Below are positions 9,603-12,600 of a stretch of DNA of 64,000 bases, in pieces. Under the pieces are notes generated by a model. That model was not told the DNA's origin, ran no database searches, and saw only the letters and a program-made list of their open reading frames with translations. How positions within the stretch are numbered: position 1 is the stretch's first letter; each line of letters starts with the position of its first letter. Origin of the DNA: Escherichia coli. Its GTDB lineage: Bacteria; Pseudomonadota; Gammaproteobacteria; Enterobacterales; Enterobacteriaceae. The stretch lies in the NCBI RefSeq assembly GCF_003790525.1, contig NZ_CP033635.1. One strand, written 5' to 3'. The position numbers and the translations under genes are program-made.

Positions 9603-12600
9603 TACCAGCTATATTTCACACCCAGCATGCCCTGAGTATCGCTATAGCCTTTATCACCTAGTTGCACACCGACATTCCCCCACAGGCTAAGGTTGTTATA
9701 TTCGCATCGTTCTGATACCAGGTCGCGTACAGTCCTGCGCTGTAACCGCTGATGCGCCCATCCGATTTATAACCCACATGATTACTCTGAGTATTACTGT
9801 GCTGATTGGCATAGCCTGCCATGACGCCGAGATGCCAGCGATCCTGCGTGCTACTCCACTGCGCCAAATCGCCGCCTAGCTGCAATACATAGCGGTTAGC
9901 CTGAGTATTTAGCTGACCATCACCGGTCCTGAAACGTTCGTGCCCTCCGACATGACGCATCCACATACTGGTTGCCGAATCCTGAACTCGCAGTGAATCT
10001 GTATACTGCGGCTCACCCAGACGGTCGTGTAAGCGATGGCTAAACAGCGAGTTGGCTGCGGCAATGTTGCTGATATAGCTTCCGGCCTCCGGGCGATAAA
10101 CTGATGGGCCTTCCGGATCCACAACAGGGGGATTATTGATGGGATCGGGTGTATCCGCTGGCGTTACGCCGTCCCATTTACTGGTCAGATACCAGTTTTT
10201 CTCGTCATTCCCCTTCCCTTTAGCCAGCGTGTAGACGTAAGCCCCAGCTTCGACAGTTCCGGTGGTCAGCGCGAAGTTACCTGCAGAATTACCGCCAACC
10301 TCAATGAGTTCAATACCGTTGACCGTTTGTGCACCGACGCCGCCAATGTTATCAACCCGAACGCGAGTGTTCCCTTGGGTATCGCCTTTCACGTTCATTT
10401 TATCCGTGGGTGAATTATCGCCGCCCAGCGTCGCGTTGAACGTCATCAGGCCATTGTTTCCGGTATAGTTGCCGTTAACGGTCAGTACATTCCCCGGTTT
10501 CCCCCCTTCGCTGTTCATTTGAACCGTGCCACCATTCTCCAGGTTACCGCCGACAGTGGTTTTAGCGACACGCAGTGTCCCCCCTGGCATAACGTTCACA
10601 TCACCTGCAGTGGTGACATTTCCCGACATCACACCGCTGTTATGGATATTAATGTGCTGACTTGCCATATTAATGGCAGAGTCGGAACCGAAAGCAATTT
10701 CACCACCCACGATATCCGTCGTACCCTGATACGCCGCGGAATCTTTGTTAAGAGTCAGGATCCCGGTACCCAGTTTTGTCACATCACCGCTACCGCTGAT
10801 ACTGTGCGTCATCGCCCAGCTACGCTCAGTGGCGATGGTGAGCAGGCCATTATTGATAACGGAAGCATCCCCCAGGTTTTTCTGCTCGTTGACGCTGAGC
10901 GCGCTGCCTGTATCAATGTTGAATTGCCCCACAAAGCGGCTATTATCGCCATCCAGCTCTACGTCTGTCCTGGCGGTTGCGCTCACGATACCCTTCCCGC
11001 TTATGCTATTACGCAGTTCGCCGGTCACGTTTTTTAGCGTTAACAGACCGTCATTGGCAATATTTCCTCTGCCTAACCCCTGCGTATTATCGAGGCTGAC
11101 TTCCGCATTTGGGCTAACGCTGGTTAACGCATTGTAGCGTGCATTAAGCCCCTCGATAGCCAGCGTTCCCCCTGTAACATTCAGGTTTCCGCCACCTGTC
11201 AGTTCACCCTGACTGATCCCACCTTTATTTACCGTCAGCGACCCTTCTTTGAACAAAACAGTCGAACCCATCTGCCCGGTGAATGTCTCTACCGTCTGCG
11301 TCGATCCATTAAGATCGACGATGGCCGCGTTGCTGATGTTCAGTTCCCGGGTGTTGCCCAGCGCGCCATCCGCATCGGTACGTAATGTCCCCATCTGAAC
11401 GTAGGTTGCCCCCTGATAGTCGTTCTGACCGTTGGAAAGCGAAACCTGTCGCACCGTATTGATTGCCAGATCCCCTTCACCACCGATTTTTGCCGACATA
11501 TCGGCCGTTGCGCCATAGGCTCCGCCATGTTCGGCTAATGTCAGCTTTTGCCCACCATGGATGTTCAGCGCTTTCAGCCCATAGTTAACGTACAAACCAT
11601 CACCTGGTGCGGTCGTGAGGCGGAATCCATAATCACCCTCAGCGACCACCGTTCCGTTTTGCGCAATGTGTAACGTTTTGTCCGCTTCCACCTCGTCGCC
11701 CTGTAAATCACGTAACGTTAATGAGCCACCCGACCCAATAACCGTTTGCGCCTTCACCAGTTGAACGCCGACATGGTTATCATCGTGTTCCAGCAAATTG
11801 AGCGTCGTCAGAGGGTTATTCGCCATGGGATCATTCCACGGTTTAGGCACGTCGATAAGCACGTCGCCCGTCCCGTTTACCTGATAGTTACGGCCTTTCC
11901 AGGTGTAGTCACTCGCGCCGACAACCAGCGTATCGACGCTGATATATCCCTCTGCAAGCGTCGCAGCAGGAATATCCGTATCGAAAATGAGCGTACCGCC
12001 ATTCATGGCCAGTCCACCAATGGATTGCTCTCCTACGTTTACCGATGTGGTATTTTCAATGTCAGACTGCAACATCGCGTGAGTAAGCGCAGCGGTGTTG
12101 TCGCGTTCCAGAGTGAAGGTACTGTCTTTCAGTTGGGCAACACCGGCGAATTCAGTCCCTGTTGCATGGGTAAAGCCAAACATCTTGTCGGAGGATGACA
12201 GCTGCACTCGCATCAAGCCATCGCCTTTGAGCGCATTGGTCAGCGTGTAATCTCCTGCGCTGTTCGTTGATGCGAGAATGTCGAGCGTACCGGGGCTTGC
12301 AATGGTGACTTCACTCGAACCCATGCCTGTTACCCCATCTGCCGTATGTGACGCAATAGTCAGGAGGCCGTCATTGACCAGCGTTTTACCGCTATAAGTA
12401 TTCCCTGCATTGAACACCGTATGGCCTGCATCATGCATCACTTTTCCGTCTTTATCGTCACCCGTAATCAGCATATCGACCTGGTAGCCGGCATCACTGT
12501 TATTGGTATGATTAAAGACAAAAACGCCTTCGCCAAGACCAAACTCCACTTTCGTCGCATTGGTAATAAACCCGGCATCTGCCGCCACCTCACCGTGAGC

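Follow-up and report, generated by a model that had tools for sequence, protein, structure and literature searches.

A 481-bp deletion and frameshift in the translocator domain of an AIDA-I-type autotransporter gene beside lsrK in Escherichia coli

The window analysed here, a stretch of 64,000 nucleotides from contig NZ_CP033635.1 (RefSeq assembly GCF_003790525.1), belongs to the lsr/ydeQRST region of the Escherichia coli chromosome and carries, on its minus strand, a gene for a large autotransporter adhesin with a defect in the part coding for its C-terminal barrel. The gene is flanked on one side by lsrK, lsrR and the lsr operon and on the other by a chaperone-usher fimbrial cluster, made up of a fimA-like gene, a chaperone, an usher, ydeS and ydeR. 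Over the 1001 bases at 9450..10450, identity is 100% to strain 2016C-3878 and 96-98% to the majority of the other complete E. coli genomes. Directly upstream of the autotransporter gene is lsrK, both in the window strain and in ST70, K-12, ST648, SMS-3-5, WB61 and CFSAN061771; the gene thus has the conserved position beside lsrK that marks the ECSE_1600 family of autotransporters.

Membership of this family is also indicated by the protein. The NCBIfam model NF011422 (ECSE_1600 family autotransporter) has a curated whole-protein cut-off of 2335 bits; the window protein reaches 3652 bits with a match to profile positions 1-1617 of 1806, and the intact allele of ST70 reaches 4143 bits with a match to positions 1-1806. 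An N-terminal Sec signal peptide is present in the form of an extended signal peptide region (ESPR; PF13018), and is followed by a repeat-rich passenger, in which Pfam finds a passenger-associated repeat and TIGR04393 repeats occur in eight stretches, and by a C-terminal autochaperone, where PF18883 and PF03212 together span residues 1332-1452. The profile for the barrel itself gives a different picture: PF03797 (autotransporter beta-domain) was not detected by Pfam in the window protein, whereas the intact ST70 allele has it at residues 1525-1784, and TIGR01414 is matched by the window protein at positions 2-249 of 432 only. We considered AIDA-I, MisL, ShdA and YfaL/EhaC as identities, but all of these NCBIfam models remain below their cut-offs and represent relatives only; the AIDA-I model NF033176, for example, has a cut-off of 1200 bits, of which the window protein reaches 181 and the intact allele 357. 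On the evidence of these sequence profiles, the gene is an AIDA-I-type classical autotransporter adhesin of the ECSE_1600 family. The K-12 gene at the same locus, which we take to be YdeK/YneO, is recorded there as 'ECSE_1600 family autotransporter, frameshifted'; it is a frameshifted pseudogene beside lsrK and hipBA, and the YdeK-type label given to the window gene from its sequence alone was therefore right for the locus. A literature search on YdeK, YneO and ECSE_1600 found no functional characterisation, only incidental mentions and the genome paper of strain SE11.

The nature of the defect is evident from an alignment of the window gene (14538..9602, 4937 nt) with intact alleles of 5421 nt, including those of ST70 and CFSAN061771. 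Intact ECSE_1600 alleles, as in E. coli SE11, encode 1806 amino acids (e.g., WP_038819893.1 and WP_077516058.1) and occupy the same locus, from lsrK to hipBA/ydeQRST. Over the 4937 nt, identity of the window gene to the intact alleles is 97.6-98.6%, the lower value being for ST70 and the higher for CFSAN061771, which has the same hipBA-less background. With these alleles it shares an identical ESPR, the repeat-rich passenger, the autochaperone and the first four barrel strands. Exactly two differences in length separate it from them, namely a 3-bp in-frame deletion at reference nucleotide 4691 and a 481-bp deletion that takes out strands 5-10. As 481 equals 3 x 160 + 1, the second of these shifts the reading frame, and the product ends at residue 1626 rather than 1806. 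Both the gap and the frameshift were seen against three intact alleles, and the sequence beyond the junction (9602..9697) is identical to theirs. The coordinates of these features are collected in Table 1.

Table 1. Features of the truncated autotransporter gene and of its barrel remnant (window coordinates; model residues are those of the AlphaFold2 model described in the text)
Feature	Position	Strand	Details
Truncated ORF (open reading frame), ECSE_1600-family classical (type Va) autotransporter, 1626 aa	9658..14538	-	Residues 1-1613 native, 1614-1626 frameshift tail
Extended signal peptide region (ESPR), residues 1-47	14398..14538	-	Pfam PF13018, E 3e-14
Autochaperone/pertactin-like domain at passenger end, residues 1332-1438	10225..10545	-	Pfam PF18883 E 8e-26, PF03212 E 3e-10
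Linker helices before barrel, intact residues ~1483-1519, retained	9982..10092	-	Helices at model residues 4-18, 24-28, 36-40
Strands beta1-beta4, intact residues 1521-1611, retained in frame	9709..9978	-	Model residues 42-59, 64-82, 88-107, 113-132
Deletion junction; intact nt 4843-5323 gone (481 bp; codons 1615-1774 and one base of codon 1775)	9699..9700	-	Alignments
Frameshifted tail, 13 foreign residues and TAG stop (9660..9658)	9658..9699	-	ORF ends ...GGMSVCN, stop
Barrel remnant, strands beta11-beta12 (model 299-326), ...GVKYSW motif, original TAA stop 9604..9602	9602..9697	-	Present, out of frame; model strands 299-309, 315-326
21-codon GTG-started ORF within remnant, 'hypothetical protein' WP_241525493.1	9602..9667	-	Annotated features at L001 6784..6849 and L005 7055..7120

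To place the deletion on the fold of the translocator domain, the C-terminus of the intact allele (residues 1480-1806) was modelled with AlphaFold2 from an alignment of 31 homologues at 53-76% identity. The model (mean predicted local distance difference test score, 87.7; predicted template modelling [TM] score, 0.86) consists of linker helices followed by twelve long strands, with short hairpins in two external loops. Its best match in the PDB is 4MEE (TM 0.89/0.95, root mean square deviation 1.8 Å, 37% identity), and the BrkA, Hbp, EspP, EstA and NalP barrels come next. 4MEE is the AIDA-I transport unit, which the intact C-terminal 377 amino acids also match in sequence (E 4e-73). The deleted residues correspond to model residues 136-295, which span strands 5-10. 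Strands 11 and 12 are still encoded, in another frame, and no single frame can encode the whole barrel; the ORF does not end in a C-terminal aromatic beta-signal, and the native ...YSW motif is left untranslated. Had the deletion kept the frame, the barrel would still have just six strands.

These results bear out most of what an earlier note on this DNA, made from the sequence alone, had proposed. It had described an internal deletion and frame change in the translocator domain, with most of the barrel missing and a junction near 9697-9706, and all of this agrees with the 481-bp gap, with the strands lost or out of frame in the model and with a junction between 9700 and 9699. The end of the ORF at 9658, with the C-terminus that the note quoted, is also as described, and the homologue alignment that it had set as a test shows no complete barrel in one frame. 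Three details need correction. The note placed the canonical final strand in a different frame ending at 9603; the frame is right, but the stop codon extends the remnant to 9602. The remnant does include the final strand, but it is not a single strand, as both beta11 and beta12 are encoded. Finally, the ORF was said to end about 130 residues into the barrel, a figure that holds only if the linker helices are counted; the barrel proper starts at intact residues 1521-1525 and native sequence ends at residue 1613, some 90 residues further on.

As to how the deletion arose, its placement is ambiguous by one A, a 1-bp microhomology. The ends have no usable repeat beyond this shared base, which points to illegitimate recombination with minimal microhomology. 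A simple slip between AATAA repeats was considered and rejected: the pentamer does occur at each end, but with an offset of 2 bp from the junction, and such a slip would not yield the sequence seen here.

The distribution of the junction was determined with a 44-nt query centred on it, with 22 nt on each side, the halves being too short for megablast seeding in intact alleles. Of 5426 complete E. coli genomes, 74 contain it at 100% identity, each in a single copy that is in every case chromosomal. The sources of these genomes are humans, cattle, chickens, dogs, sheep, wastewater and rivers. One of the carriers is SMS-3-5, whose sequence does not differ from that of the window across 5666 bp that take in the gene and the DNA on either side. 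In effect this is the resequencing check that the earlier note had suggested, and the frame is not restored. An identical junction in 74 independent complete genomes must have been inherited, which excludes sequencing error.

For the protein, the consequences can be predicted from what is known of this class of autotransporter. The barrel of classical autotransporters is a 12-stranded monomer (PMC9289746); passenger translocation requires that it fold and insert in the outer membrane (PMC5895577), and BAM, the machinery for beta-barrel assembly, engages a beta-signal in the final strand (PMC10945584). A single illegitimate-recombination deletion with 1-bp microhomology removed the DNA for strands 5-10 and shifted the frame; translation stops once 13 foreign residues have been added, and the last two strands, with the C-terminal assembly signal, are left unread. 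With its signal peptide retained, the product would be expected to enter the periplasm. As it has four strands and is without the C-terminal beta-signal, BAM should be unable to assemble a barrel in the outer membrane, the passenger would not be displayed and the product would most likely be degraded. Since classical autotransporters need both a folded barrel and the final-strand beta-signal, it is a sound inference that normal export of the adhesin, which the earlier note also held to be lost, does not occur, and surface display of the passenger is predicted to fail.

The interpretation that we favour, with a probability of roughly 95%, is that a large classical autotransporter adhesin of the AIDA-I type has become a lineage-specific pseudogene here through a single 481-bp illegitimate-recombination deletion, which occurred once and has been passed on within a sub-lineage to which SMS-3-5 belongs. 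Nothing that we found contradicts reading the locus as a pseudogene, and the defect is already known, as a pseudogene flag is present in public annotation: in both 2016C-3878 and SMS-3-5, the NCBI Prokaryotic Genome Annotation Pipeline (PGAP) gives the gene pseudogene status with the remark 'incomplete; missing C-terminus'. Two qualifications are in order. One is a possible origin in two steps, in which 483 bp were first lost in frame between two AATAA repeats and 2 bp were then inserted; this would be less parsimonious. The other is that the open 4.9-kb upstream ORF is uninformative on selection; the compared carriers are identical in sequence, so the deletion must be young and an open ORF is expected by default.

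This second point bears on the alternative that the truncated product continues to be made, with a residual or new role, whether as a periplasmic or membrane-associated passenger fragment or as a misfolded protein that induces stress. The 1626-codon ORF, the signal peptide and the upstream region are all intact, and the allele persists in 74 genomes, as such a role would allow. Yet the openness of the ORF is what identical carriers would show in any case, several independent decays elsewhere and the absence of the gene from phylogroup B2 (PMC2608844) suggest relaxed selection, and the frameshift tail has no C-terminal aromatic beta-signal; we consider this alternative highly improbable. An altered adhesin is more improbable still. 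The truncated chain retains its signal peptide, the entire passenger, the linker helix and exactly four barrel strands, as many as each subunit contributes in trimeric (type Vc) autotransporters; three such chains might build a composite 12-strand barrel, or the product might arrive at the surface in another way or have a periplasmic activity. That the deletion and frameshift are unreal and reflect a sequencing or assembly artefact is in practice refuted. Collapses are possible in repetitive passenger regions, yet the deleted segment is non-repetitive; the exact junction recurs in complete genomes from many laboratories, hosts and years, SMS-3-5 agrees over its whole shared stretch, and we found no support for an artefact. 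The opposite polarity, a short ancestral form into which 481 bp were inserted in other strains, can be dismissed with near certainty and has no support, as the segment encodes strands 5-10 in residue-by-residue alignment with the solved AIDA-I barrel, the same strands occur in homologues from Trabulsiella, Citrobacter, Yersinia, Serratia and other genera, and without the segment no reading frame runs through the domain.

Inactivation of this gene is not confined to the window lineage. According to the SE11 genome paper (PMC2608844), SE11 and HS have an intact ECSE_1600 (1806 amino acids); in MG1655, E24377A and O157 Sakai the gene is disrupted, and the B2 strains CFT073, UTI89 and 536 do not have it. 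The same paper, from 2008, described the gene as commonly disrupted or absent. The pseudogene of K-12 MG1655 is the same gene, also inactivated and beside lsrK and hipBA, but its lesion is different: a 1-bp insertion at nucleotide 3953, in the passenger, with the full barrel-coding region kept, indicating an independent event. In ST648 and WB61, the lesions of the gene are a ~780-bp deletion in the passenger and a ~232-bp deletion in the barrel, while the gene is intact in CFSAN061771 and ST70. The ~232-bp barrel deletion of ST648 and WB61, which are hipBA-less, overlaps the segment deleted in the window, and both strains (loci L004 and L006, respectively) also have an insertion sequence (IS) element inserted in the neighbouring fimA-like gene. 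With AIDA-I of diffusely adhering E. coli the family shares a common architecture of signal peptide, beta-helical passenger, autochaperone, linker and 12-strand barrel; the ECSE_1600 passenger differs from that of AIDA-I and is much longer, and the window allele is without half of the barrel.

The practical implications are modest. Pseudogene is the appropriate annotation for the locus; the 21-codon 'hypothetical protein' called by PGAP within the remnant (WP_241525493.1) is the tail of the old barrel frame, an annotation by-product of that pseudogene. The strain is one without this particular adhesin, and the 481-bp junction makes it easy to recognise one E. coli sub-lineage. The finding adds one more case to a known pattern, in which the autotransporter adhesin genes of E. 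coli are often and independently inactivated; as an ordinary dead gene of a known family, it has little importance beyond bookkeeping.

Just past the old stop codon, at ~9566..9594 on the minus strand, a 10-bp perfect inverted repeat (AAGCCGCATG...CATGCGGCTT) has been retained. A scan of 9300..9800 for terminators and promoters called nothing; the repeat is probably the terminator hairpin of the gene, left uncalled for want of a T-run.

A second deletion lies close by. The hipBA toxin-antitoxin module, which adjoins the gene in K-12 and ST70, is missing from the window, with a junction at ~9471..9474 (within 9400..9530, minus strand) and a loss of ~1.6 kb (K-12 locus L003, 7477..9083). What remains of hipA is its last ~20 codons (...NVLRLHDRLSREYGIK, then stop) at ~9414..9476, and what remains of the module also includes two HipB-operator-like palindromes, TATCC-N8-GGATA, at 9481..9498 and 9509..9526, where 0.03 would be expected by chance. 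The hipBA-less junction occurs in 163 of the 5426 complete genomes, more widely than the barrel deletion with its 74. We considered whether the barrel deletion is linked to the hipBA deletion 225 bp away, and rejected this because the hipBA-less set includes intact autotransporter genes, among them the intact 1806-amino-acid allele of CFSAN061771. The two are therefore separate events, of which the loss of hipBA is the older, and the barrel deletion lies inside the hipBA-less lineage.

Other features of the surroundings can be noted. Downstream of the gene, at ~8918..9160 on the minus strand, is a fragment of a helix-turn-helix regulator, annotated as being without its N-terminus. The chaperone-usher cluster (2096..8507, minus strand) appears complete, with a fimA-like gene, a chaperone, an 883-amino-acid usher, ydeS, ydeR and a ydeQ-like gene; its K-12 counterpart has a truncated usher (ydeT) and neither a fimA-like gene nor a chaperone gene. 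At the same locus in strain A20, the autotransporter gene, lsrK and lsrR, together with part of lsrA and lsrC, have been replaced by a block which adjoins the same hipBA-less junction as in the window. This block carries a gene for a TIR-domain protein, an IS21-family element and filamentous-phage-like genes for a replication protein II/X, a major coat protein and an attachment protein.
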